From an uncultured Candidatus Saccharibacteria bacterium (GTDB lineage Bacteria > Patescibacteriota > Minisyncoccia > Phycocordibacterales > UBA5272): DNA of 64,000 nucleotides. Shown in pieces: positions 1,370 through 54,512 of the stretch. The notes beneath the pieces were generated by a model that was given only the letters and a program-made list of their open reading frames with translations, had not been told where the DNA came from and did no database searches. The stretch is taken from assembly GCA_964538815.1 (NCBI GenBank), contig CAZIHL010000002.1, forward strand, positions 570-64,569, in the 5' to 3' direction. Every line of letters starts with the position of its first letter. Position 1 is the first letter of the stretch. The translations under genes were made by a program, and so were the position numbers.

Positions 1370-1373
1370 ATTT

Positions 1374-2954: not shown

Positions 2955-2986
2955 AATAATTACATTTTAACATATTAAAAGTTTAA

Positions 2987-3760: not shown

Positions 3761-3781
3761 TATATATATTATATCAAATAA

Positions 3782-5593: not shown

Positions 5594-5597
5594 AATT

Positions 5598-6182: not shown

Positions 6183-6199
6183 TTTTTTATTATAACATT

Positions 6200-6697
6200 T
6201 TATATTTTATATTTATCATTTCTTTTTAATAATTCTTCTTTTAAATTTAAATTATTTATTTTTTCTTCACCCAAAATATCTAACCTACTAGATAATTCTT
6301 TAAGTTTTTCATGTGTTATATGCTTAGCTTCTATTTCTTTATTCTTTTTTATTTCTGCTTCTCTTTTTAAATTTTCTATAATTCTAAGCTCACTTTTTTC
6401 TGGTGCTATTTCTTCTTTCTTTTTTATCCAAACATAAGTTTTATTTCCTAATATAAATTTATAAGCAGCCTCTAAAATATCCGCAAAAGGTCTATTGTTA
6501 ATTTTAACAAAAGCCAAAGCTAAAAAGGTACCAGAAAATATAAGTATAAATAAAATAGAAATTATTTTAAAAGGTATTAATTTCCAAAAAATATAAGCAA
6601 AAGCTAAAGCCCCAAGCAAATAACCAAACTGTTTAAATGTAAAAGGTCCAAAAACTTTATCTTCAATATCTAAGAATTGGGGAAGTCTAAATTGCAT
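6200..6697 (-). CDS. PrgI/VirB3-like small membrane protein
   Basis: Two hydrophobic helices (GYLLGALAFAYIFWKLIPFKIISILFILIFSGTFLALAFV) immediately upstream of virB4, the canonical position of VirB3/PrgI. C-terminal charged coiled-coil tail. Confidence 0.55.
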   Translation of the reverse strand: MQFRLPQFLDIEDKVFGPFTFKQFGYLLGALAFAYIFWKLIPFKIISILFILIFSGTFLALAFVKINNRPFADILEAAYKFILGNKTYVWIKKKEEIAPEKSELRIIENLKREAEIKKNKEIEAKHITHEKLKELSSRLDILGEEKINNLNLKEELLKRNDKYKI

Positions 6698-6727
6698 AAA
6701 TATATTTTAACATTAATAATATATTTT

Positions 6728-7843: not shown

Positions 7844-7903
7844 AAATAATAAATGAGACCTTTTGTCTCATTTATTATATCAAATATTTTTTATTTTATT
7901 TTT

Positions 7904-10900
7904 TTATCTATTTATATAATCGTTTCCATCAAGATTATCTTTTCTTGTAGATTTTACATTTACTTTTTTTTCTACTTTTTCTGGTTTAATATTTGTTCTT
8001 ACAGGTTCTATTCTACCTACCGGCATACTTTCCATCCTTAAGTTATGTGCCATTTCTGATAATGCTCTTTGACTTTGATTTTGCATAGAGTTTCCACCTA
8101 TTTCTGCAACTATATTTGGTTTGGTATTTTCTTCAGGTTTTATTACATCTATTTTAGAATTGCTTTCAGTTCTTGCTCTATTTATTAAAGATATATTTTT
8201 TAAGGTGTTTGCATAATCTTTAGTTGTTACCGTAAGATCTTTTATATCTTTTGATATAGACTCTAAATTTTCTCTTATTTTTTGCGTATTATTTGTCTGA
8301 TTTTTTGATCTATTTTTTTCTTCCAGGTCTTGTAATACTGTCTTTTGATACTGGTCTGATGTATATCTTTGATTTTCTTCTTTTCTTAATTTATTCTCTT
8401 TTTTAAGATTTGTTTCTATATCTCCTCTTTTTTCTTCTAGAGCTTTTCTCCTGTTGCTAATTCTGTCCGCAAGTTCTTTATCTAATATTTCTTGATTCAT
8501 AACTCCTCCATTATTTTTAATCTTATTTCCCAAGCTAGCATTATGTTTTTCAAACTCTTCTTTATTTTTTGATTGTGCTTGACTAAATTGTAATCTGCTT
8601 TTTAAAGATTCTTGAGCAGAAACATTTTTTATAGAAGGAGCTGGGACACTGTTTTGATTTTGAGTTGTATTATTTGTATTTTGGGCAGTATTTTGATTTT
8701 GAGTTATATTATTTGTATTTTGATTCTGTTGGTTTTGGGTATTTGTTGTATTATTTGTATTTTGATTTTTCTTGTTCTTTTCTTCAAATTCAGATATTGA
8801 TTTCATTATTTTTTCTTTTCTTTTATTTTCATCAGGCTCATCTTTAATAATTTTATCAAAATCTTCTTTTAATTTACTGTTTTTTGGTTTTTCTAATTCT
8901 TTACTAAAATACTCTTCACCTTTTCCATTTTCTTTAAAATGATTATTTATAAATTTGATCATTTTTTCTTTTCTCTTGTCTTTGTCAGATTCTTTATTAA
9001 TTTTATTAAAATTACCCGCTAATCTATTATTAGTATCTATTTTTTCTTCAAAAGAAAGATTTTTATTTTTAGATTCTAATCTATCAGCTACCCTATTTCC
9101 GTTAAATATAACTGAAGTACCAGTCCAACCAGATCTTAAATTATTTATATGTTTCCCTTTTGCATCATCATTTAATCTGTCATAAAAGTGTTTCTCTTTC
9201 GCATATCTCTTTCTAAAAGAAGAATCTATTGTGGTATTTCCACCCTTACCAAAAGTCCCTTTTGTTGCAGCTTGAAAAACTTTTGAATTCCTAGCATCAA
9301 AAGTACTATTTTGAGCATAGTCTTGTAGTTTTAATGCTAATCTGCCTCGAGTGCCTCCTTTGGCTATCCATCCATCAAATTTCTTACTATTTACCACTTT
9401 TCCCGCACCCATTCGTAGAGCTTTTGAGGCTCCACCAAAAGCCAGACTACCAATAGTACCAGAAATTTTTCCTGAAACTTTTGCACCAATTTCTCCACTT
9501 AAGTTTTTCGCTGTTGTTATTGCGAGTTGTAGGATAATTATAGAAATAACACCAGATATAGCAGCACCCGTCAATTGTCCAGAAATATTTTCTGTAGTCA
9601 AGGCAGAAGTATTTTGTATTAAGGCACTACCAGCATCACCAACTTTCATCGCTATAAGTAGTAAGAATAAAAATATAGGCGCCATAATTGTAGCATTGGT
9701 AAAATATTTAATTACCATATCTCTATATTTATCTATATAACTATTTATGCCAGCTGGCAGTAGCATAACTGGAGAGAAGATCATGCACAGAACAAGAGTT
9801 ATACCACGAATAAATATTAATATTGCTGCTTGGAAAAATATTATTATTGCTACACCAGTTATTAATACTTGTATCCCAAATGCTGGAACGGAATCCCAAG
9901 CACCTAAACTTATAATTTCTTGACTTTTTAAGGAAGGATCTCCAATAATTAATCTTTCCATACTAGAAGCAATACTTTGATTTGGATTATGTAAAGATCT
10001 ATAGATATATATTGAAAATACATTTGCTTGATCAATTAAAAACCCTACAATACTAAATGAAAAGTATACAAATAATGCAGTAAATAAAATCTTAGGAAGA
10101 ATTTTTTGTATTTGAGCAGTGTCATTATCTATCAGCATTCTGATAATGTAATAAAAGACAATTGGCAATAGAAGTGAAGTAACAAGAGCCAAAATTACCT
10201 TTCTCCACACTTCATAAGCACCAGAATTACTAACTAAGTCGCTAAAATTATAAACACTAAAACCCATTACCCAGTCAAAAAGCTTTTCAGATAAAGTTAG
10301 AATCATTTTGAATAAAGAATTTAAACCTTGCAAAAGCATATTTATCAAATATGCAACTATACTACAATTTGTAGCTCCAATAAATGTATCCCAAAAGCCT
10401 GCAGTAGGAGAACATTGTTTTACTGTTGACGTTTGTGCCGCTCCTCCAGTCTCTGGATCTTTTATCGGTTCATTTTGTTCATTTATAATTAAAGGAAAAT
10501 CTCTACCTTTTCGACTAACTTTTCCATAAACTCCCCCTGTTGGATTGATCTCGTCTTCTCTTAGTTTTTCTTCTTCTCCTGACCAATTCCAAGGACCTCC
10601 GTCGTAAGACTTATTTATCATTTCATTAATAATTTTAGAGGTTTCTGTATCTAGATTCTGGTATTTATCTTGAATAACTTTTAGTTGTTTATATAGATAT
10701 ATCCTTCTTTGTCTAACAAGTATTATTTTAAAATCATCAAATCCGTAAATCTCTTCTACATTAAGTACATCATTATATAAAGATTGAAAACTTGTGGTTG
10801 TTGCACCAACCATACCAGTATAAGTTTTTGTATTATCTATTATTTTTGTAAGTTCTGCAATAAGAGGTGTTGTAGTAGCATTTACTTTAATTTGTGTAAT

Positions 10901-11293
10901 TTTATCAGTATAGTTTATTTTTACTGATTGAGAATATTCTTTAGTAAACTCTTCTGAGTATTTTGTTAAACTAGTAGTAATAAGAGTTTTTATTTCAGAG
11001 GATGTTAGAAGTATGTCTGAGTCAGAATAAAAATAACATCCAGTATTTGCCTTATTTAATTTATCTATAGTTATAGAGTCATTTACTGGAACAGTATTTA
11101 TGTACACTTGAGTTCCTTTTATTATGTAGTCAATATTTAATTTTGAATTGCCTGCCCCTTCACATTTTTCTCCTGAATGAATATATACAGAAGCTTTAGA
11201 AATATTTATATTAAAAGTAAAAAATAGAATAACGATCCAAAATACTTTTAATATTTTTTTAGAAAAAATATCAGAAAATAAATTTCTTTTCAT
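7904..11293 (-). CDS. VirB6/TrbL-like polytopic membrane protein with N-terminal secreted domain and ~500-aa Asn/Gln/Lys/Glu-rich cytoplasmic tail
   Basis: Signal peptide, ~300-aa ectodomain, at least 6 predicted TM helices in the central region, then a long low-complexity tail with an internal KDKRKEKMIKFINNHFKEN / ENKRKEKIMKSISEFEEKN duplication and a QNQNTNN tract. Confidence 0.6.
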   Translation of the reverse strand: MKRNLFSDIFSKKILKVFWIVILFFTFNINISKASVYIHSGEKCEGAGNSKLNIDYIIKGTQVYINTVPVNDSITIDKLNKANTGCYFYSDSDILLTSSEIKTLITTSLTKYSEEFTKEYSQSVKINYTDKITQIKVNATTTPLIAELTKIIDNTKTYTGMVGATTTSFQSLYNDVLNVEEIYGFDDFKIILVRQRRIYLYKQLKVIQDKYQNLDTETSKIINEMINKSYDGGPWNWSGEEEKLREDEINPTGGVYGKVSRKGRDFPLIINEQNEPIKDPETGGAAQTSTVKQCSPTAGFWDTFIGATNCSIVAYLINMLLQGLNSLFKMILTLSEKLFDWVMGFSVYNFSDLVSNSGAYEVWRKVILALVTSLLLPIVFYYIIRMLIDNDTAQIQKILPKILFTALFVYFSFSIVGFLIDQANVFSIYIYRSLHNPNQSIASSMERLIIGDPSLKSQEIISLGAWDSVPAFGIQVLITGVAIIIFFQAAILIFIRGITLVLCMIFSPVMLLPAGINSYIDKYRDMVIKYFTNATIMAPIFLFLLLIAMKVGDAGSALIQNTSALTTENISGQLTGAAISGVISIIILQLAITTAKNLSGEIGAKVSGKISGTIGSLAFGGASKALRMGAGKVVNSKKFDGWIAKGGTRGRLALKLQDYAQNSTFDARNSKVFQAATKGTFGKGGNTTIDSSFRKRYAKEKHFYDRLNDDAKGKHINNLRSGWTGTSVIFNGNRVADRLESKNKNLSFEEKIDTNNRLAGNFNKINKESDKDKRKEKMIKFINNHFKENGKGEEYFSKELEKPKNSKLKEDFDKIIKDEPDENKRKEKIMKSISEFEEKNKKNQNTNNTTNTQNQQNQNTNNITQNQNTAQNTNNTTQNQNSVPAPSIKNVSAQESLKSRLQFSQAQSKNKEEFEKHNASLGNKIKNNGGVMNQEILDKELADRISNRRKALEEKRGDIETNLKKENKLRKEENQRYTSDQYQKTVLQDLEEKNRSKNQTNNTQKIRENLESISKDIKDLTVTTKDYANTLKNISLINRARTESNSKIDVIKPEENTKPNIVAEIGGNSMQNQSQRALSEMAHNLRMESMPVGRIEPVRTNIKPEKVEKKVNVKSTRKDNLDGNDYINR
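8640..8800 (-). repeat. In-frame ~39-bp imperfect tandem repeat (about 3-4 units) encoding the Asn/Gln/Thr tract of the VirB6-like protein
   Basis: ttttgattttgagtt(g/a)tattatttgtattttg recurs at 8652 and 8691 with further degenerate copies. This corresponds to the QNQNTNNITQNQNTAQNTNNTTQNQN stretch in the protein. Confidence 0.6.
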
Positions 11294-11325
11294 TTTAGTA
11301 TTTTACCATGAGAAAAGGAAAAAAA

Positions 11326-11356
11326 TTAAAAAACCCCAAATCCTGGGGTTTATTTT
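11326..11356. terminator. Intrinsic terminator/attenuator hairpin between the 831-aa secreted protein gene and the VirB6-like gene
   Basis: aaaaaccccaaatcctggggtttattttttt: a CCCCA/TGGGG stem with T-tracts on both strands. Confidence 0.5.
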
Positions 11357-11372
11357 TTTGTTTTATTATTTA

Positions 11373-13868
11373 TTATTCCGGTGAACAGAAGTTTCTACCT
11401 GCATTTATTAAGTCTTGTTTTTGTGTTGCATTTTGACATTGGCGTATGAGAGAAGGATCAGTCGTTAATTGGCAGTCTTTTTCTACGGAAGCTACAACAT
11501 CTACACAATATGCGTCCATTTCTGATTCTGACGGTAATTGCATACTTAATTGTTGTGCATAATTATTTAGTAAGCTTGTCATAACCTCATCATCACATAC
11601 AGTATTTTCAAGTCCTAAAGTATTACAGAATTTTAATTCAGACCAACTTTTTGTATTATCTGGATCTAATACGTTTACTACATTTTTTGTCCCAAGCATT
11701 GGAATTTCTGGAGAAACATCTTCTTGTTTAGACATTCCATATCTTGGGAGTAATGTTGACGATAGAGTATTTTCAGATTTTTTACCAAATAGTTTTGATA
11801 ATGTAAAAGATCTATTGGCACCTTTTTTATAAGTATTCCAAGCCCGCACTCTCAAATAGAATACATTTTGACTAGTAAAAGGTCCTTCTCTCTCATCTTT
11901 TGTTGGTATTAATAGTTTACTATTTCCCGCTTCATCATTATTTGATGAAGTAGGGTCATTATGATAGTCTTGATATCTAGGAGTATAATTCCATATTGAC
12001 AGCATACTAGCATATTCTTTTTGTGTTAATCCTTTACCTAGTACGGATTCTAAAATCTCCTGATTGTCTTCTGTTCGACTGTCTGTGCTTTGGAATTCTT
12101 TTAATAGTTTTTCCATTTGTTGCTGATCATAATTATTTTTAGCCATATCTGTAATAAGATATCTTATGTCTTTGGTTATAGTAATTAAAGCTTCACTAAG
12201 TCCTACTACAGCTTGTTGAGTGTTATTAGCAACCTGTGTTGCTTTTCTCGCTTTTTTACCACCACCAAATAAATTTCCTATAGGATTAAAAATGGATAAG
12301 ATAACAGCATCTCTTTTTGCACTGTCTGCGACCTGGCTTGTAACATCTATAGAGTCGTTTCCTCCACCAATAGCTAGTACTAAGAATGTGTAAGTAAATA
12401 CTTCCTCATTTAGTTTTGTAGTATTTAATACATTTATATCATTATACAATTTAATTCTGTCTTTTAGATCATCTATAGTGTATTTAGTTGTTGTACCATT
12501 ATTATAATCTTGTTGTGCTTGATTTGCATCAGCATATAGTTGAGATTGTGCATTTTGAGAATCCACTATATTTTGTAAATTATTAACAAGTCTTGAATAC
12601 GGATTATCTTCCCTATTTAATGTCATATTAGTATTTTTTGCACCAATATTTAATACTCCTGAAATATTGTTCATGATATTACTAGCAGCACTTAAACATG
12701 AATTAATCAATCCTGTGTTTGTTTGAGTCGTACCCTGACCAGTCCATTTATCATTAGATCCATTATTTTGACATTCTTTCTTTTTATTGTTTATGGCTGA
12801 TGCTCTTGCAAGCATAGAGAAATATGGACCAAGTAGAGAAGCTGCTGTCCTATCTTTTACTACGGTACCACTTTGTTCAGGCACACTATCTTGACTATAA
12901 CAAGCTCTCTCTAAGCTACTACTTGCTGCTGGATCATACTTTACTTTCTTTCCATTTTTATCAAAACATACTTGTTGACCAATTGTTAATTCTGTAGCTT
13001 CTACTTGCTTTGAAGCCATGTCTTCAGCCGTTTGTTTTTTAGAGAGTACTCTTGAAAGAGTTGATGAGATTACTCCACTTGCAGTATTTGCTGGATCGTA
13101 TAGTGCTGCATCTGTTTTTTCTCCTCCATATCCTGCTTTTGCAAGTCCTGTAAAGGTTGCTTGATCTTCAGCAGACATTATAGATACAGCAGAAGAATTA
13201 CATAATTTATCAATATCTACATTTCCAACTGCTGGTTTTGGCTTTGTAAAAGTAGAAGGCTCACCATTTTTAATAATATTTTTTAATTTTGGATCACTAC
13301 ATATTTCATTTCTAGCGATAATAGGAAGATTAAAAGATATAAGCTTTCCAGCCGCAGTATCCGCAACATTTTTTGCAAAGTCCGTGATTTGTTTTTTAAT
13401 TTCTCCAGAATATATTGAAGTATTTTGTGGCTCTTTAAAATCATTAATCGCTTTTTTAATTTCATTTACTCCTGTTTTATCTATATAGTTTTTAAGATTT
13501 GTAATAACTTGATTACCATCAGTGTTTATATTTATACCTATTCCTTGATTGCCGGTCACTACTTTCAAAGCTGTTTCAGCGTAATTCAAAATTTGATCAG
13601 ATCCAATATTTTTTGCGAAAGTTGATAAGTCAAAATTCTTTACAGTTTGAACTACTCCTTTAGCAGACTGGTAAGTATTATATAGAGTCTGTGCTGTTGC
13701 TATATAATCTTTTATATCCATTTGCCCATCCCATATTTTTTTAGCTGTATCTTGTCCAAAGATTAAAGGTGTAAAAGGATCAACAGCATAAGTTTTTTCT
13801 ACTTTTATTATAAGAATAAGAATAAAAGTAGTAACTAAAATTATTTTTTTGAAATTATTTATTTTCAT
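11373..13868 (-). CDS. Large secreted protein (831 aa), unknown; possible surface or pilus-associated component of the cluster
   Basis: Signal peptide LVTTFILILIIKVEKTYA. Gln/Asn/Thr-rich with scattered Cys. Followed by a terminator hairpin, which suggests higher expression than the downstream genes. Confidence 0.5.
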   Translation of the reverse strand: MKINNFKKIILVTTFILILIIKVEKTYAVDPFTPLIFGQDTAKKIWDGQMDIKDYIATAQTLYNTYQSAKGVVQTVKNFDLSTFAKNIGSDQILNYAETALKVVTGNQGIGININTDGNQVITNLKNYIDKTGVNEIKKAINDFKEPQNTSIYSGEIKKQITDFAKNVADTAAGKLISFNLPIIARNEICSDPKLKNIIKNGEPSTFTKPKPAVGNVDIDKLCNSSAVSIMSAEDQATFTGLAKAGYGGEKTDAALYDPANTASGVISSTLSRVLSKKQTAEDMASKQVEATELTIGQQVCFDKNGKKVKYDPAASSSLERACYSQDSVPEQSGTVVKDRTAASLLGPYFSMLARASAINNKKKECQNNGSNDKWTGQGTTQTNTGLINSCLSAASNIMNNISGVLNIGAKNTNMTLNREDNPYSRLVNNLQNIVDSQNAQSQLYADANQAQQDYNNGTTTKYTIDDLKDRIKLYNDINVLNTTKLNEEVFTYTFLVLAIGGGNDSIDVTSQVADSAKRDAVILSIFNPIGNLFGGGKKARKATQVANNTQQAVVGLSEALITITKDIRYLITDMAKNNYDQQQMEKLLKEFQSTDSRTEDNQEILESVLGKGLTQKEYASMLSIWNYTPRYQDYHNDPTSSNNDEAGNSKLLIPTKDEREGPFTSQNVFYLRVRAWNTYKKGANRSFTLSKLFGKKSENTLSSTLLPRYGMSKQEDVSPEIPMLGTKNVVNVLDPDNTKSWSELKFCNTLGLENTVCDDEVMTSLLNNYAQQLSMQLPSESEMDAYCVDVVASVEKDCQLTTDPSLIRQCQNATQKQDLINAGRNFCSPE

Positions 13869-13887
13869 ATATTTTTAAATTAAAGAA

Positions 13888-14745
13888 TTATAATCCAGAA
13901 CTTCTAAAATAATTGTTAAAAGAGTCAATTATACTAGATATATCACTATCAAATTTTTGTTCAAAACTTTCTCCATTATTTAAAACATATTTAGCAGGAT
14001 CTGTGTCTATATAAAGTAAAGATTTTATATAGACATTTTGTTGCGATATAAGATTAATAAGTTGGAGCTGATATGTGGCACCAGTACTTGTAGTTGGTAT
14101 AGAAATAAGATCGTTTATAAAAGAATTATTTATGGCTATCTTTTTTAATGCGTTAGATGTTATGGCCGCTTTCATACTTACAATATTTTCTTCAGAAGGA
14201 TTGCTAGAATATTGTGAGATATCTGTGAGATTCAAATTTTGAATAGATTTTTTATAGTTTGTAAGTGCTCTATTTATATCGGTATAATATTCTCTTATAG
14301 ATTCTAAATCATCATTTCTAATGACATTTAAATCTTTTTCTGTGTATATTTTACCTTTGGCTTGTTTTTGATATTCTAAAATTATATTTGCCAATATTTG
14401 TCCTTTGGCAGTAGGATCTGTTAAACCATTTTGGTCAAGGAACATATTAGTTAATAGTAGTGATTGAGAAAGATCTTGAGTTAAATTATGGTCTATACTA
14501 TTTGTATAGTCTACAGAACCAATATCTCCATCTTCACTCAAGTCTAACCCATAATCAGCGGCAATTTGGTCTATATTAAGATAAAATTTTCCATCTTTGT
14601 GGACACTTCCATACTTACTTGGTCCTGTGACATTAATAAGTATTGCAATAAGTACAGCCATTACACCTATTGCGTATAGGTAAGTTTTTAAACTTACATT
14701 GGATAAGACTTCTCGCAATCTTGTCCAAATATTTTCATTTTCCAT
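13888..14745 (-). CDS. Bitopic membrane protein (N-terminal TM, extracytoplasmic domain), first gene of the operon; VirB8-like topology, by inference only
   Basis: TM helix LYAIGVMAVLIAILINV near the N-terminus and a 285-aa size. No motif recognized. Confidence 0.4.
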   Translation of the reverse strand: MENENIWTRLREVLSNVSLKTYLYAIGVMAVLIAILINVTGPSKYGSVHKDGKFYLNIDQIAADYGLDLSEDGDIGSVDYTNSIDHNLTQDLSQSLLLTNMFLDQNGLTDPTAKGQILANIILEYQKQAKGKIYTEKDLNVIRNDDLESIREYYTDINRALTNYKKSIQNLNLTDISQYSSNPSEENIVSMKAAITSNALKKIAINNSFINDLISIPTTSTGATYQLQLINLISQQNVYIKSLLYIDTDPAKYVLNNGESFEQKFDSDISSIIDSFNNYFRSSGL

Positions 14746-14828
14746 ATTTATAAATTATGATTTAAATACCAAAACAAACTATTAATATAGCTATATTTTA
14801 TCACGGATATGTTTATAAATATTTTATT

Positions 14829-15617
14829 TTAGGTGTTTTCCACAATTTTTAAGAAATCTTCGGTGTTAAGATTTTCCGCACGAATCTTTTTATCTATTTT
14901 TAATTTTTCAAAAATTCTTTCAAAATCTATATCTTTAATTTCATTTTTTAAATTACTTAGCATCACTTTTCTTTTGTGAGCAAATGCTGTTTTTACAATT
15001 TTGAAATATTTTTCTTCTATTTTTTCTTCTATTTTTTGATTTTTGATATCAATTAGTAGTACCGCACTATCAACTTTTGGTTTTGGGAAAAAACTTCCAG
15101 CAGAAACTTTGTAAATAAGCTTTGGATTACCGTATAATTTTACAGCAAGGGAAAGGATAGATTCTTTTTTATCTTTTGCTACAATCCTTTCCGCCACCTC
15201 TTTTTGTACTAAAAGAACCATTTTTGAAGGTTTTTTATTGAGTGAAAGGAATTTTTCAATAATTGCTCCGGTAATATAGTAAGGAATATTTGCTATTAAT
15301 TTATAGTCTTTATCTTTTATTTCTTTCTTTAAAAATTTATCAATGTCAATGTTTAAAATATCTTCTTCTATTAAATTAAATTTTTTATTTTTTATTTCTT
15401 TTTTAAATTTTTCTTTTAAAAACGGGATTAATTCTCTATCTTTTTCAATCGCTATAAGTCTTGCTCCTGTTTCTAAAATTTTTTCAGTCAAAGCTCCTTT
15501 TCCTGGTCCAATTTCTAGTATAATATCTTCTTTTTGAATATCTCCAGCTTGAATTATTTCAAAAACAGCTTTTCCACTTGTTAGGAAGTTTTGCCCGAGG
15601 GATTTTTTAGGTTTCAT
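14829..15617 (-). CDS. rsmA: 16S rRNA (adenine1518/1519-N6)-dimethyltransferase
   Basis: SLGQNFL and EIGPGKGALT signature motifs of KsgA/RsmA. Confidence 0.9.
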   Translation of the reverse strand: MKPKKSLGQNFLTSGKAVFEIIQAGDIQKEDIILEIGPGKGALTEKILETGARLIAIEKDRELIPFLKEKFKKEIKNKKFNLIEEDILNIDIDKFLKKEIKDKDYKLIANIPYYITGAIIEKFLSLNKKPSKMVLLVQKEVAERIVAKDKKESILSLAVKLYGNPKLIYKVSAGSFFPKPKVDSAVLLIDIKNQKIEEKIEEKYFKIVKTAFAHKRKVMLSNLKNEIKDIDFERIFEKLKIDKKIRAENLNTEDFLKIVENT

Positions 15618-15794
15618 GAGGGTATTGTAGCATTAAAGCAGAAAACTTTGAAAATTTAAAAGTAAAATAGATTGACATTAAAAACAAATAAATGTTTTTG
15701 AGAACTGACGACGCTCAGCAGAGTCTAGGAAGTTTGAAAAAATATTTTTTGTTTTTTAGAAAACTTTTGGAAACTTTGAAAGTTTAACAAAAAA

Positions 15795-15830
15795 TACTGG
15801 GTAGCGCCGAAGGCGCTACCCAGTATTTTA
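15795..15830 (-). terminator. Rho-independent terminator downstream of uvrD; member of the CCGAAGG-apex hairpin family
   Basis: tactgggtagcgccgaaggcgctacccagta followed by a T-tract on the minus strand. Confidence 0.6.
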
Positions 15831-17846
15831 GAATTCCAAGAAATCTTCATCCTCATATTCATCATCTCCAAAATCCCAAACCCTTTTTTTCTTTTGGTTA
15901 GTCTCTTCTCCGGCATCACCATAATATATATCGTGATAAATTATCTTTTCTGCTGGAAGTTCATTTATATCTTCTAAAAATTCACTTGGAATATTTATTT
16001 TCTTCTCTCCATAAATAGTTCTCATCTCGGCATAACAAAGGAAAAGTTTTTTCTTGGCACGAGTTACGGCTACATAAAAAAGTCTTCTCTCTTCTTCTGA
16101 CTCCTCAAGAGACTTTTTACTATTTCCAATATCAATATGTGGAAATAAATCTTCTTCAAGTCCTACAATAAATACATAATCAAACTCTAATCCTTTTGCT
16201 GAATGAATTGTCATCAATCTTACTCCATTTTTTGATTCATCATTATCATCCTGATCACTTTTTAAAGAAGTTTCATCTATAAAAATTTCATAAGCTTCAC
16301 TTGCTTTTAAATTATCAAACTTTTTAGTTATAGATACTAATTCACGTATATTTTCTAGTCTTTCTTTGTCCTCAGTGCTTCCATTTAAAAGTTCTTGCTC
16401 AATCCCAGAATCCACAATTATCATTGTCATAATTTCTGAAAGTTTATTATCACTATAATCAATTTCATTTTGAATTTTATCTAAAAATTCATATACATTT
16501 TGAATTTTTTGTCTAGTAGATGCGGAGATTGTTTCTTCTTCGCCTGCAAAAACTTTCATAATACTTGCTTTACCAATTCCTCTTTTTGGAGTTTCAAAGA
16601 CTCTTTTTAAGTCTCCAAGATTTGCTCTATTTTTACTTACTCTCAAATAACTCATTACATCTTTAATTTCTTTTCTTTCAAAGAATTTTGTCCCAAGCAA
16701 ATTGTATGGAATATTAGCTTTTATAAAAGCTTCTTCTAAAATACGTGATTGGAAATTTGTTCTATAAAGTACTGCAAAGTTTTTTAAATCTTCTCCTTTC
16801 TCTCTTACAATTTCTTTTATTTTTTTAGTAATAAAATCACCTTCTCTTCTTTCATCAAAAGTAGGACAAATCTCTATCTCTTCCCCTTCATTTTGATTGG
16901 TAAATAAATTTTTAGGAAAACGAGCTTTGTTTTTAGCTATAGAAATATTAGCTAAATTTAAAATATTTTGTGTTGAACGATAATTTTCTTCAAGCAAAAT
17001 TGTCTTTCCATTTGGAAAATCTTTTTCAAAATTTAAAATATTTTTAAGATTTGCTCCGCGCCAAGAATAAATATTTTGATCAATATCTCCTACCACACAA
17101 ACATTTCTATTTTCAGAGTCTATAAGGCATTTTATAAGTTCATATTGTGAATTGTTAGTATCCTGATACTCATCAATATGAATATATTTAAATTTATCTT
17201 CATAATACTTTTTAATATTTTCATTTTTTAGAAGTTCAATAGTTTTAATGATTAAGTCATCGAAATCTACCGCACATCTTTTTTTTAGTTCAGCATCATA
17301 ATTCCTCCAAACTTTTTCAATAACTTCCATGTTATAGCTAGAAATTTTCTTAGCATAATCTTCCACTGTATTATCAGAAGATTTTTCACGACTTATTGCA
17401 TTTTTAATCTTACTTGCATCGTGGAGTTTTGGGTCAAGTGATAAATTTGTAAGTATTTCTTTAATTATATTGTTTGCATCACTTGGATCTAATACTGTTA
17501 AATTTTTATTAAAGCCAAGACCATGTCCATGTTCACGAAGTATTGAAAGACCAAGTGAGTGAAAAGTTTTAATAGTCGGAAGGTTTCTATTTGTCCAAAT
17601 ATTTTTTTCATATTCTTCTATTAATCCCTCATCACTCATACGAGAAATTATTCTTTCAAGCATTTCTTTAGCGGCCTTATTTGTAAAAGTTACACATAAA
17701 ATATTTCTTGGTTCCACACCACTTTTTATAATATTTACTACTCTTTCAGTAATTGTTTTAGTTTTACCAGCTCCTGCTCCAGCTAAAATTAAAAGCGGCC
17801 CACTTATAGTATTGACCGCTTCTAATTGTTTTTCATTTAAATTCAT
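15828..17846 (-). CDS. pcrA: ATP-dependent DNA helicase UvrD/PcrA family
   Basis: N-terminal LNEKQLEAVNTISGPLLILAGAGAGKTKTITERV (helicase motif I) and a 672-aa UvrD-like architecture. Confidence 0.85.
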   Translation of the reverse strand: MNLNEKQLEAVNTISGPLLILAGAGAGKTKTITERVVNIIKSGVEPRNILCVTFTNKAAKEMLERIISRMSDEGLIEEYEKNIWTNRNLPTIKTFHSLGLSILREHGHGLGFNKNLTVLDPSDANNIIKEILTNLSLDPKLHDASKIKNAISREKSSDNTVEDYAKKISSYNMEVIEKVWRNYDAELKKRCAVDFDDLIIKTIELLKNENIKKYYEDKFKYIHIDEYQDTNNSQYELIKCLIDSENRNVCVVGDIDQNIYSWRGANLKNILNFEKDFPNGKTILLEENYRSTQNILNLANISIAKNKARFPKNLFTNQNEGEEIEICPTFDERREGDFITKKIKEIVREKGEDLKNFAVLYRTNFQSRILEEAFIKANIPYNLLGTKFFERKEIKDVMSYLRVSKNRANLGDLKRVFETPKRGIGKASIMKVFAGEEETISASTRQKIQNVYEFLDKIQNEIDYSDNKLSEIMTMIIVDSGIEQELLNGSTEDKERLENIRELVSITKKFDNLKASEAYEIFIDETSLKSDQDDNDESKNGVRLMTIHSAKGLEFDYVFIVGLEEDLFPHIDIGNSKKSLEESEEERRLFYVAVTRAKKKLFLCYAEMRTIYGEKKINIPSEFLEDINELPAEKIIYHDIYYGDAGEETNQKKKRVWDFGDDEYEDEDFLEF

Positions 17847-17866
17847 TTTTTTATTTTAACATATTT

Positions 17867-18808
17867 TTATTTTTCTTGAATATATTTTTTTAAATAGCAC
17901 TTTTTTAAGTAATCTCCAATATTTTCTTCTTCATTTGGTTCTATATTTAATTCATTTTTCAAATTATTCAATATTTCTTCTATTTTATCTTTATCTTCTA
18001 TATCTAAATCTGTATATTCTTCTCTATTTTTTAAAAAATCTTTAGTGTTTAAATTTTTAATCGATGTTATAAAAGTATTTTTCTTAAATAAAAATCCACT
18101 TTTTTCAAATTTTGGTAAAATAGCTTTTATTTTTTCATTTATATAATTTACTTTTTTTGTATACAAAGGATCATCTTCTGAAAGGGTAGAAGAAAAATCA
18201 GTATCAATTATTTCTTTATCTTCTTTTTCTTTTAAAGTGTCAGGAGACTCTTGATTTAAATCTATACTTTTTTCTTCTTTTTGTTTTTTTTCATTTGTTA
18301 AACTAGTTTTTTTCTCATCTTTTTTTATAGTTTCGATTTTGAAAATTGGTTCATTGTCAGTACTTTTATATTCATTTGTATTTTTGTCTATTTTTTCTTC
18401 TAAAGATTTTGAAAAATAGTCTAAATTTTCTACTTTTGTTTCAATTTCAGAAATTAAAATATTTAACTCTTGTAATTTTATATCCAATTCTTTGCCTATA
18501 GCACGTCCTAAAAAATCTACGTTTTCTTTTACTTTATAATCCAAAGTATTGTTAACATTATCAAGTATCCTATTTTCTAGGTTAGAAAATTCAGTAGAAA
18601 TTTCATGACTAGCAACTTCTGCAAATTTTTTAATTTCTTCTCCAACAATTTTTTTACTTATATTTGTGATCTTCTGACGAAGAAGAGTGTCGCTAGATCC
18701 TTTATTTTCATTTGTAGAAAAGGCTAAAATGTTAGCTCTAGTTTTTTCTATACCATGAATATTATTTTTTATATATGGGTTGTGAGAATCTAAATAATTA
18801 TCCTTCAT
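17867..18808 (-). CDS. Hypothetical Lys/Glu-rich protein
   Basis: 313-aa ORF with no recognizable motif. Confidence 0.4.
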   Translation of the reverse strand: MKDNYLDSHNPYIKNNIHGIEKTRANILAFSTNENKGSSDTLLRQKITNISKKIVGEEIKKFAEVASHEISTEFSNLENRILDNVNNTLDYKVKENVDFLGRAIGKELDIKLQELNILISEIETKVENLDYFSKSLEEKIDKNTNEYKSTDNEPIFKIETIKKDEKKTSLTNEKKQKEEKSIDLNQESPDTLKEKEDKEIIDTDFSSTLSEDDPLYTKKVNYINEKIKAILPKFEKSGFLFKKNTFITSIKNLNTKDFLKNREEYTDLDIEDKDKIEEILNNLKNELNIEPNEEENIGDYLKKCYLKKYIQEK

Positions 18809-22425: not shown

Positions 22426-22508
22426 AAGAAAAAGATTTTATATAAAAATTATATCATAAAAAGAAATTATGAAATTAAAAGGACAATATTTTAATATTGT
22501 CCTTTTAA

Positions 22509-25507: not shown

Positions 25508-25541
25508 AAAAAGACATCTTTGATGTCTTTTTATTTATTAA
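25508..25541. terminator. Bidirectional terminator hairpin between xth and the convergent surface-protein gene
   Basis: aaaagacatctttgatgtctttttattt. Confidence 0.55.
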
Positions 25542-36059: not shown

Positions 36060-36440
36060 AATATTTTTCAATGTCATTTTATGATAAAAAATTTATAAAG
36101 GACATAAAATAAAAGAGACATAAAGGACAAATTATAAAAATAATTTATAAAGGACAGTTATCCACAATCATTTATTAAAAACATATTGCAAATATTTTTA
36201 TGTCCTTTATAATAAGTACAGGGTGAGCAGCTTAGGATAAAAGCACTACCCGGCTTACGGGAAAAATATAAATAATATCCTCGCAAGCTGGTCTCACTAA
36301 ATAGTTCATTACAATAGCAACGCATTAGTTGCAAATAATAAATAATAGCCCAAAAACTTATATATTTGTCCTTTATAAAATTTAAAAGGACAGACTCGTC
36401 TTTTAAAAATATTATTAAAGATTTAAAAGGCATATTATTA
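36060..36440. repeat. Cluster of TTATAAAGGACA motifs (at least 5 copies, both orientations) plus a perfect DnaA box TTATCCACA (about 36148)
   Basis: tataaaggacataaaat, gacataaaggacaaat, tataaaggacagttatccacaatc, tatgtcctttataat, tttgtcctttataaaatttaaaaggacag. Modules are shared with the repeats at 43440-43640, 53671-53790 and 54397-54512. Confidence 0.6.
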
Positions 36441-36479
36441 ACTTGTGAAAGTTAATAAAAATTTATCTCAAATACCAGA

Positions 36480-36716
36480 GAGATAAACTATAAGGACGAC
36501 ACCTTTAAAACAGTCAAAATTATTTTTCGTGTCCAGTGATCTGCATATGAGGGAATGTAGCTCGCTGGACATGAGACAACCCCTCTAAAATTCCCCAATC
36601 TCATGTTCAGGTCAGGTAGAGCCTTTGCTCCCGCTGATAATATTATGGGGAGTTTTTTATTTCTAAAATTTAATAAAGAAATATAAAAAACGCTTGTAAA
36701 ACAAGCGTTTTTGTTT
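36480..36716 (+). ncRNA. Candidate structured small RNA of unknown identity, bounded by two T-tract hairpins
   Basis: Inverted repeats gtccag...ctggac and catgaga...tctcatg; ctcccgctgataatattatggggag followed by tttttt (about 36657); and aacgcttgtaaaacaagcgtttttgttttt (36688-36716). Relatively GC-rich in an AT-rich spacer with no ORF. Confidence 0.3.
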
Positions 36717-41447: not shown

Positions 41448-42569
41448 TTAATAAACCATTATATTCTGCAATCCTACAAGTCTTCCATCTGCAAGCACTC
41501 TGACTCTCCACTCCCCTTTCGAAATATTACTAATTTGTGTGTATCCTCTATAGCCCTCTTCTCTACCCCCAGAAATAGGATAACCTATTTCAGCTTCTTT
41601 TATCCAAATTTTTCTCTCAGCATCATACTTTTCCCAGACATGGGTAATATCTGCCGATACATTTGCTGGTGAAATTATACTTGAGTAAAAATACATCTCC
41701 CCTCCATTTATTTCTTTAAGTGTTAGTAAATCATAATGATCTTTATTTAAGATAAAAAATTTTTTATCTTGTACCAGCCCTCTATCTTCCCTATTATAAG
41801 TATATCCACCACCAACATCTATCTTTTCAACTTTTGTATAAAATCCAGAATCCCCTAATGCTAGAGGCACTGCTGGGATATAGTTTATAAAATAAAGTCT
41901 AAGCATTAAAAACGGAAAGAATATAGAAAATATTATAAGAAATATAAAATCTCTACTAGATAAATATATTCTTTGCAATAAAACTGTGAGTATAGAAGTT
42001 AAAATAACAGCAATTAAAATAGAAACAAAAAAAGTATAAGTATTAACTTTATTTACTACAATAGGCACATTAAAGATTATGTAAAAAGTTAATCCTATAT
42101 AAAATAGAATCAAATCAGGAACTCTTCCATACATAAATTCATTCAGAATGATAGCAATAAGAATAATTAAAAATATTGGCCACATTTGAATAACATCAGA
42201 GCTTCTAAAATAATAGACTAAAGTATTGGATAAAAGCGTTCCCAAGAAAAATGAAACCCAGAATGTTGCCCAGCGAGTAGCTTTTTCTATCCTTTTATAA
42301 CCTTTTGTTTTTAAATCATCAAAAGTTTTCTTTTCCTCTGTTTCTTGTGAAACTTTTAATTCTTTCTTTATTTTCTTTGTACGTTTTATCAGATTCCCCT
42401 GTACTGCCTGTCTTGCAAAAATGAAAATTAAAATAACAGTAATATTAATTGGTCCTACCCATATATAATACGGAGATGTGGTTTTTGGTAAAATTAATAT
42501 ATCTGTAATAAAACCAGTAAAAAAAGAAATAGTTTTAAAATGTTTTATACAAAATTTAACGAAAGACAT
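41448..42569 (-). CDS. Polytopic membrane protein with C-terminal soluble domain, unknown function
   Basis: At least 7 hydrophobic helices, then a ~130-aa C-terminal domain. Confidence 0.5.
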   Translation of the reverse strand: MSFVKFCIKHFKTISFFTGFITDILILPKTTSPYYIWVGPINITVILIFIFARQAVQGNLIKRTKKIKKELKVSQETEEKKTFDDLKTKGYKRIEKATRWATFWVSFFLGTLLSNTLVYYFRSSDVIQMWPIFLIILIAIILNEFMYGRVPDLILFYIGLTFYIIFNVPIVVNKVNTYTFFVSILIAVILTSILTVLLQRIYLSSRDFIFLIIFSIFFPFLMLRLYFINYIPAVPLALGDSGFYTKVEKIDVGGGYTYNREDRGLVQDKKFFILNKDHYDLLTLKEINGGEMYFYSSIISPANVSADITHVWEKYDAERKIWIKEAEIGYPISGGREEGYRGYTQISNISKGEWRVRVLADGRLVGLQNIMVY

Positions 42570-42589
42570 AATTATTTATAATAATTATA

Positions 42590-43012
42590 TTACAAAATAA
42601 AGTCTTTATACATTTTTATCTTCGCTTGCTGTGAATTTGTTTCTATAAAAACTATTACGGCGATAACTTTTATATCTATATCACTTTCTTTTATTTTTCT
42701 ATAAGACAGATAATGTTTTATGGCCTTTAAAAGTCTTTGTCGTTTAGAGGTGGTTAAATTGTTTTCAGGAGAGAAAGGGTTGTCTTTTATTTCTTCAAAG
42801 TTTTTAATTTTTTTAGTTTTTACTTCAATAAAAGCTAGATTTCTTAGTTTCACATGAAATTTTTTTATGTCTTTTATCTTTTGGGTCGCAATAATATCTA
42901 TTTCCCCTCCTTTCATGTGAAAATTTCTTTCAATAATATCAAAATCTTTAGAAATAAGATATTTCACAGCAATATTTTCACCCAATTTTCCTATTTCATT
43001 ATGTTCTGCCAT
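42590..43012 (-). CDS. yraN: YraN/UPF0102 family endonuclease-like protein
   Basis: GKLGENIAVKYL...NFHMKGGEIDIIA...FIEVKTKK matches the YraN pattern (GE..A..YL, GEIDLIA, FVEVKTR). Confidence 0.6.
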   Translation of the reverse strand: MAEHNEIGKLGENIAVKYLISKDFDIIERNFHMKGGEIDIIATQKIKDIKKFHVKLRNLAFIEVKTKKIKNFEEIKDNPFSPENNLTTSKRQRLLKAIKHYLSYRKIKESDIDIKVIAVIVFIETNSQQAKIKMYKDFIL

Positions 43013-43039
43013 TATACTTTATATTTTAGCACTATTTTA

Positions 43040-43400
43040 GAATTAATTGTCTTATTTCACAAGAAACAATATAAATACACTATATTTCATTTTTTGTTAA
43101 GTAAAAAATATCACATTTTATGTTAAGAATCATTTCATATAAAATAATGAAATACAAATATTTTATTAACACTTCATTACATTTTTCAACTAGGTTTATT
43201 ATCATATATTTCATATGAAACTTTAGAATATTATGAAATACTCATTTCACACGAAACAAACTCAAGTATGCTTGGAGAAAGCATATAAAAAATAAGTATT
43301 TCACATGAAAACCTTAATGTATTTCTTTTGGGTTTTTTGATTTATATTTTAATAAAACATAAGAGATTAAATTAGTTTCACGTGAAACAATTATATAGAT
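43040..43400. promoter_or_regulatory. Array of at least 6 palindromic TTTCAC-N(1-3)-GTGAAA-like sites in a 650-bp AT-rich spacer at a gene-strand switch (candidate operator array or origin-associated repeats)
   Basis: atttcacaagaaac (43052), tttcatatgaaact (43209), tgaaatactcatttca and atttcacacgaaac (43235-43258), tatttcacatgaaaac (43297), and the perfect palindrome gtttcacgtgaaac (43375). One more copy at 44686 (rc atttcacaagaaacg). Confidence 0.55.
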
Positions 43401-43439
43401 TACTGGTATAATTCGAGACAAATAGATATAAAAGACAAA

Positions 43440-43640
43440 AAAGCTTGAAAATAAAGGACTTTTTAAAGGACAAGTATTATATGTCTTTTTATGCTTGTCT
43501 TTTTAAATGTCGTTTATACACATATGCACTGATTTATCCACCATTTTTGACAAAAGGACAAAATATCTCACAAAAAAGACAGTATTTAATGTCTTTTTGA
43601 TAATATATAAAATATATGTCTTTGACGGTATTATAAATCT
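43440..43640. repeat. Degenerate copy of the dispersed intergenic repeat family (AAGGACA modules, AAATGTCGTTTATA, DnaA-box-like TTATCCACC)
   Basis: aaatgtcgtttata (43506) is identical to the module in the 115-bp repeats. Also gatttatccacca, and multiple aaaggaca/tgtcttt copies. Confidence 0.5.
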
Positions 43641-43659
43641 AATATGATAAAATACTTTT

Positions 43660-44346
43660 ATGACCAAAGGGGAGAAAGAAATAAATATAAATGAAGAATG
43701 GAAGCTTGTTTTACAAGAGTTTTTTGCTACAGAAGACTGGAAAAGTCTCTCAGAGTTTATAAAGAAAGAATATTTAGATAAAAATAAAACAATATTTCCA
43801 TCATCAGAAGATATTTTTAAAGCTTTTGATTTAACACCATTTTCACGTGTAAAGGTTGTGATATTAGGACAAGATCCATATCATGATAAAGGACAAGCTC
43901 ACGGACTTTCTTTTTCTGTCCCTGATAACACTCCTTTACCTCCATCTTTAAAAAATATTTATAAAGAAATAGAAGAGGATTTAGGTATAAAAAAAGATTT
44001 CACAAAGGGGAGTCTAGAAAGTTGGGCAAAGCAAGGAGTCTTTCTTTTAAATACTATTTTGACTGTCATAGCTCATACTCCAGCAAGTCATAGAAATAAA
44101 GGTTGGGAGAAATTTACAGATTATATTATTAAAACTCTTTCTGATAAAGGACAAAATATGGTCTTTATGCTTTGGGGTAATTATGCTCGTTCCAAAAGGA
44201 CATTAATAGACGATAAAAGACATTTAATACTCGAATCAGTCCACCCATCACCATTCTCTGCAAATAATGGCTTTTTTGGCTCTAAACATTTTTCTAAAGC
44301 GAATAAATATTTAAAAGAACATAGGAAAGGGGAAATAGACTGGTAA
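43660..44346 (+). CDS. ung: Uracil-DNA glycosylase (family 1)
   Basis: KVVILGQDPYHDKGQAHGLSFSV and HPSP motifs. Confidence 0.9.
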   Translation: MTKGEKEININEEWKLVLQEFFATEDWKSLSEFIKKEYLDKNKTIFPSSEDIFKAFDLTPFSRVKVVILGQDPYHDKGQAHGLSFSVPDNTPLPPSLKNIYKEIEEDLGIKKDFTKGSLESWAKQGVFLLNTILTVIAHTPASHRNKGWEKFTDYIIKTLSDKGQNMVFMLWGNYARSKRTLIDDKRHLILESVHPSPFSANNGFFGSKHFSKANKYLKEHRKGEIDW

Positions 44347-44350
44347 ATTA

Positions 44351-44376
44351 TTATTTTGTGCGGCGTAGGAGAATCG
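44351..44376. repeat. Direct repeat of the tRNA-Gly(GCC) 3' end (partner copy at 44526-44551)
   Basis: ttattttgtgcggcgtaggagaatcg at 44351 versus ttatttttgtgcggcgtaggagaatcg at 44526. Degenerate tRNA-like fragments (gctcagttcgattcttc) lie between. Confidence 0.6.
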
Positions 44377-44534
44377 GTCACCAAACATAGTCGCTTTGCT
44401 CCTTGTTTCGCGACCCCGGCTTCGCTGTCTCAAAAATTTTTACAAATTTTTGGCTTCGCAGACAGCTCAGTTCGATTCTTCTACTTGCCAAAAATATATT
44501 CCAAAAATCTTTCAGCTTTTTCTCATTATTTTTG

Positions 44535-44605
44535 TGCGGCGTAGGAGAATCGAACTCCTGTCTCATCCTTGGCAAGGACGTGTTCTACCACTAAACCAAC
44601 ACCGC
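44535..44605 (-). tRNA. tRNA-Gly (anticodon GCC), no encoded CCA
   Basis: rc is GCGGTGT-TG-GTTTAGTGGTAGAACA-CGTCC-TTGCCAA-GGATG-AGAC-AGGAGTTCGATTCTCCT-ACGCCGC-A. Confidence 0.85.
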
Positions 44606-44724
44606 ATTTATACAAATAAATATATCATAAAAATCTTTTTTAGGAAAATTAATCCTTATTATTTTTCATGTAAAATATAAAAGTCGTTTCTTGTGAAATG
44701 ATTTTAAGTTTGGTAAAATATAAA

Positions 44725-45012
44725 CCTCTTCCTCAAATGATCGCGATTTCTAACTTATTTTAGGAATTGAGGAAAGTCGGAACACATACTTCTTTATAGT
44801 TAAAATGGTAGTGGGTAACACCCATCCGCCGTGAGGCGCGAGTTGCGAACAGAGACGAGCCGGTTTAGTCCGGTTGAAACGGCTAAATACTTACCTATGT
44901 GCAAGGTCGTGCTTTGATTCATTTCAAAGAGTGCCGCTTGAGGTGAAAGGAAACTTTTATCCCAGATAAATGATCATATAAACAGAATTCCGCTTATGAT
45001 GAAGAGATAAGA
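44725..45012 (+). ncRNA. rnpB: RNase P RNA (bacterial, reduced); boundaries approximate to about 20 nt
   Basis: P4 5' strand GAGGAAAGUCGGAAC, GGGUAACACCCAUC, ACAGAGACGAGCC, GGUUGAAACGGCUAAA (GNRA-rich module), AGAGUGCCGCUUGAGG, and P4 3' strand ACAGAAUUCCGCUUAU. These match conserved RNase P RNA elements. Confidence 0.75.
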
Positions 45013-53653: not shown

Positions 53654-53670
53654 ATATATTTTATATTATA

Positions 53671-53790
53671 TAAGACAAAGTTATCCACAATAACTTTTAT
53701 ATAAAATATTGTCCTTTATAAAATGTCGTTTATAATATAAATATATAAGACATTGGGTCAGCATTTTGCTGGTCTTTTTGTTTTATAACT
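53671..53790 (+). repeat. ~115-bp dispersed repeat copy A with perfect DnaA box (TTATCCACA) and TTATAAAGGACA module, immediately upstream of a PG-binding protein gene
   Basis: tataagacaaagttatccacaataacttttatataaaatattgtcctttataaaatgtcgtttataatataaatatataagacattgggtcagcattttgctggtc. About 97% identical to 54397-54512. Confidence 0.85.
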
Positions 53791-54342: not shown

Positions 54343-54396
54343 TTTATATTATTTTAGATAAAAGACACTCTATAATATAGAGTGTCTTTTATCGTA

Positions 54397-54512
54397 TAAG
54401 ACAAAGTTATCCACAATAACTTTTATATAAAGTATTGTCCTTTATAAAATGTCGTTTATAATATAAGTATATAAGACATTGGGTCAGCATTTTGCTGATC
54501 TTTTGTGTTTAT
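54397..54512 (+). repeat. ~115-bp dispersed repeat copy B (DnaA box plus TTATAAAGGACA module), immediately upstream of the next gene
   Basis: Near-identical to 53671-53790, with 3-4 mismatches. Confidence 0.85.

Follow-up and report, generated by a model that had tools for sequence, protein, structure and literature searches.

The divergent genes yraN and ung of an uncultured Candidatus Saccharibacteria bacterium (contig CAZIHL010000002.1 of assembly GCA_964538815.1) are separated by 647 bp of gene-free DNA (43013-43659). Together with its flanking genes, this spacer carries an array of short palindromes that we read as a probable chromosomal parS cluster, the loading site of ParB (Spo0J). 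Coordinates refer to the 64-kb stretch of the contig that was analyzed, which we call the window. The window has a GC content of ~28% and a gene set typical of Patescibacteria: a VirB4/PrgI type IV secretion cluster at 1-14 kb is followed by KsgA, UvrD, NusA, trigger factor, HU, ClpP, and RNase Y, and tRNAs, RNase P RNA (rnpB, 44725-45011), CCA-adding enzyme, RecJ, ComEC, and EF-Tu are encoded as well, while plus-strand open reading frames (ORFs) at 59.5-63 kb carry no annotation here. The nearest relatives are metagenome-assembled genomes (MAGs) labeled as Patescibacteria, Paceibacterota, or Candidatus Elulimicrobiales, with Ung 72-76% and VirB4 86-92% identical. The host is a Paceibacteria-type member of the Patescibacteria. 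Loci of related genomes used in the comparison are designated by L numbers.

The yraN/ung spacer and its palindromes

A preliminary description of this DNA had remarked on the length of the spacer, which is the second-longest of 60 intergenic gaps with a median of 62 bp. The AT-richness also singled out there does not exceed the norm, since the spacer has 21.5% GC against a mean of 23% in the other intergenic DNA of the window. The only small ORFs in the spacer are of low complexity and at most 54 aa long, an Rfam search across it at permissive E-values returned no credible match, and a terminator scan found none.

The palindromic repeats are clearly present. TTTCAYRTGAAA occurs exactly 6 times in the window, with 5 of these copies within 42848-43387. 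When up to 1 mismatch is allowed, the window holds 15 matches compared with 3.1 +/- 1.6 in shuffled sequence, and 11 of them fall in 42341-44698. The spacer by itself contains 6 such matches where 0.046 are expected from a first-order Markov model of the spacer, a model in which no run out of 5000 gave more than 2. The perfect palindrome GTTTCACGTGAAAC is found at 43375-43388, and the copy reported upstream of rnpB is found at 44687 with 1 mismatch, accompanied by another at 44664. Two points in the initial account of the repeats require correction. The central unspecified base assigned to the repeat is not there, as TTTCACNGTGAAA has 0 matches and the repeat is an even palindrome of 12-16 bp, and the copies are not confined to the spacer, as two lie inside the yraN coding sequence.

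When the copies are extended to 16 bp, AGTTTCACGTGAAACA (43374-43389) agrees with the canonical parS sequence TGTTTCACGTGAAACA at 15 of 16 bases, and it is the sole 16-mer of the window within 2 mismatches of parS. We refer to this site as the anchor. In the degenerate copies, the central CG is often replaced by CA, TG, or TA. All sites are listed in Table 1 along with the neighboring genes and the elements of the right half of the spacer.

Table 1. Sites, genes, and promoter-like elements at the yraN/ung locus and elsewhere in the window; mismatches are counted against the parS 16-mer or its 12-mer core.
Feature	Position	Strand	Remarks
Anchor site (putative parS) AGTTTCACGTGAAACA, 1 mismatch to TGTTTCACGTGAAACA	43374..43389	.	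homologous position kept in all relatives; alignment columns G363-A375 invariant
Degenerate parS-like TATTTCACATGAAAAC, exact 12-mer core, 4 mismatches to 16-mer	43297..43312	.	aligns with parS-like cores in L002-L004
Degenerate parS-like CATTTCACACGAAACA, 1 core mismatch, 4 to 16-mer	43243..43258	.	
Degenerate parS-like TATTTCATATGAAACT, exact core, 4 to 16-mer	43207..43222	.	aligns with AGTTTCACATGAAA of L002-L004
Weak, doubtful parS-like CATTTCATATAAAATA, 1 core mismatch, 6 to 16-mer	43131..43146	.	
parS-like TATTTCACAAGAAACA, 3 mismatches to 16-mer	43053..43068	.	
parS-like site in yraN, core TTTCATGTGAAA	42909..42924	.	codes F-H-M-K, residues 31-34
parS-like site in yraN, core TTTCACATGAAA	42846..42861	.	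codes F-H-V-K, residues 52-55
Outlying parS-like TGTTTCTTGTGAAACT, 3 mismatches	42339..42354	.	within DUF2914 gene
Two weak parS-like cores upstream of rnpB, TTTCATGTAAAA (44664) and TTTCTTGTGAAA (44687)	44662..44700	.	
Two outlying parS-like cores between hup and clpP, TTTCATGTGAAA and TTTCATATAAAA	37882..37910	.	
yraN (UPF0102 family), left neighbor, bears two parS-like sites	42590..43012	-	Pfam PF02021, E = 2.9e-19; NCBIfam YraN family
ung (uracil-DNA glycosylase), right neighbor	43660..44346	+	Pfam PF03167; relatives 55-76% identity
Eight TGTCNTTT/AAARGACA boxes in both orientations, likely ung promoter/leader	43420..43640	+	~14-bp tandem units kept in L002-L004
Most conserved spacer block TTTATACACATATGCACTGATTTATCCAC	43513..43541	+	9-mers TTATACACA (43514) and TTATCCACC (43534), 20 bp apart
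Promoter-like modules in window	36149-36215; 53670-53735; 54395-54460		
Module copies in relatives	L002 7404; L003 8255, 19985; L004 1260, 19777; L005 8127; L007 14872; L008 10520, 11950		

Some of these sites coincide with promoter-like sequence. The reverse complement of TATTTCACAAGAAACA gives the TTGTGA -35-like hexamer of a leftward (yraN) promoter-like site, and the more rnpB-proximal core, TTTCTTGTGAAA, overlaps a promoter-like TTGTGA-17-TAAAAT. By coordinate subtraction, the first of the yraN sites in Table 1 lies 101 nt from the yraN start, the same offset as in L003, and the second lies 164 nt from it in the window and 167 nt in L003. A parS-like site is found directly downstream of ung in relatives (L002 6602, L003/L004 10771, L005 3449, L007 10886). 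The cores between hup and clpP have no listed counterpart in L005, the sole compared relative locus with a clpP-sized ORF. Separately, the match to RNase P RNA is short, with 287 nt against a 367-position model and a score of 102.5 bits at a gathering threshold of 100, which suggests that this RNA is reduced.

Conservation of the array and its reading as parS

The divergent yraN/ung pair and its array are conserved in six related genomes (L002-L005, L007, L008). Their spacers contain 3-5 parS-like cores each, of which one, the anchor, is invariant in the spacer alignment and has 1-3 mismatches to the parS 16-mer, and most of the six also retain one or two copies within yraN. In another clade, which is more distant (L030/L034; Ung identity 61-62%), cca, yraN, a tRNA gene, and ung are rearranged, and 7-9 sites are found with 0-4 mismatches to the 16-mer, including one perfect 16-mer in L034. 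Besides yraN, the cca coding sequence also contains sites. Intragenic sites are unremarkable for parS, whereas operators are seldom placed in this way. In Patescibacteria that are more distant still, the vicinity of ung contains 0-1 cores.

According to a review of chromosomal ParB systems, the parS consensus is TGTTNCACGTGAAACA, the S. pneumoniae variant is AGTTTCACGTGAAACT, and parS clusters are normally origin-proximal. Scanning 1.77 Mb for sequences with up to 2 mismatches to parS returned matches almost solely at the yraN/ung locus and in the distant genomes from the dnaA search, several of which have their parS matches next to parAB and therefore serve as a positive control. The palindrome was not found elsewhere in the ~330 kb sampled for the clade, and a check of 8 close relatives up to 10 kb from dnaA revealed a parS-like core solely in L086, ~2 kb past dnaA. 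Since cores are lacking near dnaA in the other 7, the sites form essentially one cluster and not a dispersed regulon. The preliminary description had tied the failure of its origin reading to an origin lying elsewhere together with a palindrome spread genome-wide upstream of unrelated genes. Of these, the origin does appear to lie beside dnaA, while the palindrome is concentrated in one place.

This combination of 16-mer match, conservation, and restricted distribution suggests that the spacer array is very probably a chromosomal parS cluster. A centromere-like parS or iteron array had been named in passing in the preliminary description, and the match of the 16-mer to the parS consensus and the outcome of the 1.77 Mb scan support that suggestion.

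The palindromes might instead be operators through which a dimeric transcription factor controls yraN, ung, rnpB, clpP, and cca together, or, as a variant, ParB might act here mainly as a local repressor. The sites do lie between divergent genes, two of them overlap the -35-like hexamers of the yraN and rnpB promoter-like sites, and copies precede clpP and, in relatives, occupy the 5' end of cca. Against this, the extended 16-mer equals parS, copies sit deep within the yraN and cca coding sequences, and 6-9 copies per spacer would be excessive for an operator. No regulator gene adjoins the array, the neighboring ORFs have no matches to DNA-binding families, and the ~330 kb sampled for the clade contain no further copies. 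The multi-operator site that had been proposed earlier does not fit this distribution, and we consider regulation by such a factor very unlikely.

Derivation of the array from an integrated plasmid or other mobile element, whose centromere or iterons it would be, is extremely improbable, as is a Noc-like nucleoid-occlusion system. The duplicated 3' end of a tRNA-Gly gene nearby (23 nt) resembles a recombination scar, and the TGTC boxes on the ung side of the spacer could pass for iteron-like direct repeats. Yet the flanking genes are housekeeping genes whose synteny is kept across relatives, similarity to plasmids and phages is found only in the ung coding sequence, and the array has no rep, par, or integrase gene beside it, with 19 kb to the closest gene of the integrase family. 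Noc binding sites (NBS) are 16-bp palindromes with a CCCGGG center (TATTTCCCGGGAAATA) that are dispersed and avoid the terminus. They resemble the sites described here in being parS-related 16-bp palindromes, and several of our degenerate copies begin with TATTTCA as does the outer half of NBS. Unlike NBS, the present sites form one cluster, and all copies have a CAYRTG-type center in place of CCCGGG. Noc is not known outside Firmicutes.

The duplication itself is an exact 23-nt direct repeat, TTTTGTGCGGCGTAGGAGAATCG, at 44354-44376 and 44530-44552. Copy 1 directly follows the ung stop codon, and copy 2 forms the 3' end of the minus-strand tRNA-Gly(GCC) gene. Between them lies a GC-rich stretch (44377-44510) of which 44466-44490 (+) resembles a tRNA T-arm plus acceptor end. 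The region looks like decayed tRNA fragments or a recombination/integration scar, and the ORF at 44396-44680 is probably spurious.

Several observations weigh against identification of the array as parS. The main gap is that of the proteins: Pfam, tblastn, and hidden Markov model (HMM) searches found no ParB or ParA gene in the 64-kb window, nor did one turn up at a distance of up to 10 kb from ung (~50 Patescibacteria loci) or from dnaA (11 relatives). The ParB, ParA, and DnaA probes and the ParB HMM performed successfully on distant genomes, which served as positive controls. The sole ParB-domain match in the Patescibacteria loci, a 452-aa protein of L062 (3636-4994, minus strand), is not a chromosomal ParB; its N-terminal ParB-like nuclease domain is fused to an apparent DNA methyltransferase. 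In addition, the window has a single consensus-grade site, while the other copies differ from the 16-mer at 3-6 positions, frequently the outer ones, and the affinity of these degenerate copies for a canonical ParB is uncertain. Several copies with 1 mismatch, of the TTTCTTGTGAAA type, also read as TTGTGA hexamers of -35-like promoter sequence and may not be centromere sites at all. Finally, the paper library that was searched contained nothing about parS or ParB in Patescibacteria.

DnaA-like boxes and the position of the replication origin

The right half of the spacer contains a different set of repeats. The AAGGACA/TGTCTTT repeats noted at the outset are present, with 7 AAARGACA in 260 bp against 0.18 expected by length, as is the DnaA-box-like TTATCCACC, which belongs to the most conserved block of the spacer. 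That block, TTTATACACATATGCACTGATTTATCCAC, is found with 0-6 mismatches solely in L001-L008. A promoter-like AAGACA-17-GATAAT is located at 43576-43604.

Boxes of the same type recur outside the spacer. Exact TTATCCACA occurs 3 times in the window (36158, 53681, 54407), compared with ~0.8 expected per 64 kb from base composition, and each occurrence is inside a promoter-like module. The module consists of GTTATCCACA, an exact DnaA-box-like sequence, followed by 2-4 TTGTCYTTTATA units and ending in TGTCGTTTATAAT; its direct units, TTGTC(C/T)TTTATA, are spaced ~14-15 nt apart. In our reading, adjacent units would supply TTGTCY -35-like and TATAAT -10-like hexamers with ~16-17-nt spacing, which suggests a clade-specific promoter architecture that may depend on a transcription factor, possibly DnaA. 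The dnaA loci of the relatives contain no copy of the module. Because the TTATCCACA/TGTC combination is found at ordinary promoters, this type of box is not specific to origins. The version in the spacer is oriented toward ung and shares TGTCGTTTATA with the promoter modules; we therefore read the right half as an element separate from the array, most likely the promoter/leader of ung.

Two broader interpretations of these motifs were rejected. TGTCYTTTATAA is not a general promoter motif, as ordinary promoters resemble TTGaca-N17-TGTGATAAT, and the view that all AAAGACA/TGTCTTT pairs are terminators holds for 25509/25524 and 54360/54383 but not for the direct repeats of the spacer. Hairpins of the form AAAAGACA...TGTCTTTT with A-run and T-run flanks are found at 25509-25535, 54360-54394, and 22478-22505, at the ends of genes and in one case between convergent genes. 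Their appearance suggests intrinsic terminators that are AT-rich, work in both directions, and escape the standard scan. Directly downstream of one promoter module, a GC-rich and apparently non-coding stretch (~36220-36650, plus strand) begins with AGGGTGAGCAGCTTAGGATAAAAGC, and its 5' part is kept in L004, L005, and L007. Rfam offers a single hint, a tmRNA match below threshold at 36326-36394 (10 bits, E = 0.08), and ARAGORN makes no call in the stretch. A divergent tmRNA or some other small RNA may be encoded here, in which case the ORF at 36158-36433 (-) would be spurious.

The preliminary description had placed a candidate replication origin in the spacer. Such an origin, displaced from dnaA, would have DnaA binding TTATACACA and TTATCCACC and unwinding the AT-rich DNA, with bidirectional forks explaining the divergent genes. 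The pair of DnaA-like 9-mers is indeed the most conserved part of the spacer across seven genomes, parS clusters are usually close to the origin, and the dnaA-dnaN spacer of the closest relatives has just one or two good boxes. Gene orientation also lends it some weight. On the left, 29 of 39 genes are on the minus strand, the 10 plus-strand genes including blocks at 31.6-34.7 kb and 37.6-40.9 kb, and on the right, 22 of 23 are on the plus strand, with one tRNA on the minus strand. This does not amount to a global strand switch, as gene strand flips ~10 times across the window, and the switch at the spacer is not kept in relatives. The spacer has only two boxes, a DnaA-trio-like periodicity was not seen by eye, and boxes of the same type adjoin three other promoters of the window and nine in relatives. 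DnaA-like 9-mers are not enriched over the window as a whole (27 against 19.3 expected), and no unwinding element in the spacer could be distinguished from generally AT-rich intergenic DNA.

Synteny points to an origin elsewhere. As the preliminary description had recognized, no dnaA is adjacent to the spacer, and Pfam and tblastn searches found none in the entire window. Long VirB4-bearing contigs of relatives have a fixed order of UvrD, KsgA, secretion genes, VirB4, three genes, and then yidC-rnpA-rpmH on one strand with dnaA-dnaN on the opposite strand. The window opens with a partial ORF (2-1369, minus strand) orthologous (58% identity) to the gene that stands immediately before yidC in these contigs, so the start of dnaA is expected ~1.6 kb to the left of window position 1. 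By this reckoning, the dnaA-dnaN spacer should lie ~3 kb beyond the left end of the window and ~45-46 kb from the anchor, which corresponds to ~7% of a ~0.6 Mb genome (contigs of relatives reach 612-631 kb) and would put the parS locus inside the origin domain, taken as roughly 20% of the chromosome around oriC. Secretion genes have been described near dnaA in Paceibacteria (PMC12102498), in agreement with this synteny. In the relatives, the dnaA-dnaN spacer contains tandem TGTGAATAA-type DnaA boxes, which are degenerate in the closest relatives, together with an extended AT-rich segment and, distally, a conserved box of sequence TTATCAACA or TTATTCACA, a layout that matches a classical origin. 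These features argue against an origin at the spacer.

The cumulative GC skew proposed as a check has its minimum in the window at 22-31 kb and not at 43.3 kb, but raw GC and AT skew track gene strand and therefore cannot locate the origin, and we rejected them for this purpose. To control for strand, skew was calculated at third codon positions in the coding sense (GC3 skew). It is 0.25 (95% interval 0.17-0.33) for plus-strand genes left of 43.3 kb, 0.22 (0.12-0.31) for plus-strand genes to the right, and 0.10 (0.03-0.16) for those on the minus strand to the left. If the origin were at 43.3 kb, left minus-strand genes should be similar to right plus-strand genes and exceed left plus-strand genes; the opposite is observed, as a weak signal, with no switch at 43.3 kb. 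The ranking fits a fork coming from the dnaA side. Pooled over relatives, GC3 skew is 0.15 for left plus, 0.05 for left minus, 0.10 for right plus, and 0.03 for right minus, which repeats the ranking of the window, with partly overlapping intervals. Regressing third-position skew gene by gene on a movable origin gave no clear optimum, and skews at four-fold sites were too noisy. Around dnaA in the relatives, pooled skew differs on the left as expected for an origin there (0.20 versus 0.04, the left minus-strand set being the same three genes repeated) and shows no difference on the right. We take GC3 skew as evidence, not proof, against an origin at the spacer.

Together with the synteny, this makes it most probable that replication starts at dnaA-dnaN and very unlikely that the spacer is a displaced origin. 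The ~18-kb block of type IV secretion genes, KsgA, and UvrD (window 1-18808) is transcribed toward dnaA, as it is in L082 and L118, the two relatives examined for it. It would run head-on to forks from a dnaA-linked origin, which is itself unusual if the origin is at dnaA, and its orientation misled the preliminary description toward an origin at the spacer.

A compound locus is unlikely as well, if less so. The anchor lies ~125 bp from the conserved pair of DnaA-type boxes, and ParB spreading and DnaA binding might be coupled there, either for control of initiation in the manner of datA or the B. subtilis DnaA-box clusters (DBCs) or at a true or second origin 45 kb from dnaA. The box pair and the AT-rich intergenic setting resemble oriC, the DBCs, and E. 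coli datA. Unlike these, the spacer has two boxes and no skew switch, and dnaA-dnaN has its own boxes 45 kb away.

A putative partition complex and its relation to known systems

From the established ParABS model, we infer that this genome encodes a ParB that binds the array, spreads from it, functions in partition, and recruits SMC. CTP-bound ParB dimers would recognize the anchor and bind more weakly to the 7-11 surrounding degenerate copies. They would then close as clamps and slide across the flanking few kb, over yraN, ung, and rnpB, and the resulting partition complex would single out the origin-proximal domain to be segregated and, probably, to be loaded with SMC. The many TATTTCAY-type copies could possibly reflect a ParB with relaxed or shifted specificity.

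The putative parS cluster has much in common with the parS sites of B. subtilis, C. crescentus, and S. pneumoniae, including the 16-bp palindrome (TGTTNCACGTGAAACA, and AGTTTCACGTGAAACT in S. pneumoniae), an origin-proximal location, intragenic copies, and several sites per chromosome. It differs from them in having one consensus-grade site with its degenerate copies in 0.6-2.4 kb, and in its location away from parAB, which was found neither in the window nor in the relatives' loci examined. Dense parS clusters are also known from Myxococcus xanthus, Corynebacterium glutamicum, and Streptomyces coelicolor, where many parS sites in a short origin-proximal segment nucleate one large ParB complex. 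There, most of the sites are close to consensus and parAB is adjacent, whereas the array described here is mostly degenerate and is contained in one spacer and its flanking genes in a reduced genome of ~0.6 Mb. Mildly unusual, in our view, are the crowding of degenerate copies around just one consensus site, the presence of copies within yraN in two clades, the separation from any parAB genes, and the conserved DnaA-like pair next to the array.

The finding leaves the known working of parS unchanged. Chromosome segregation and origin organization are essentially undescribed in Patescibacteria, and a conserved parS array would be a practical landmark of the origin-proximal domain in fragmented MAGs as well as a defined DNA substrate for in vitro work on a Patescibacteria ParB. 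It also predicts that a ParB-based system is retained in these ultra-small cells.

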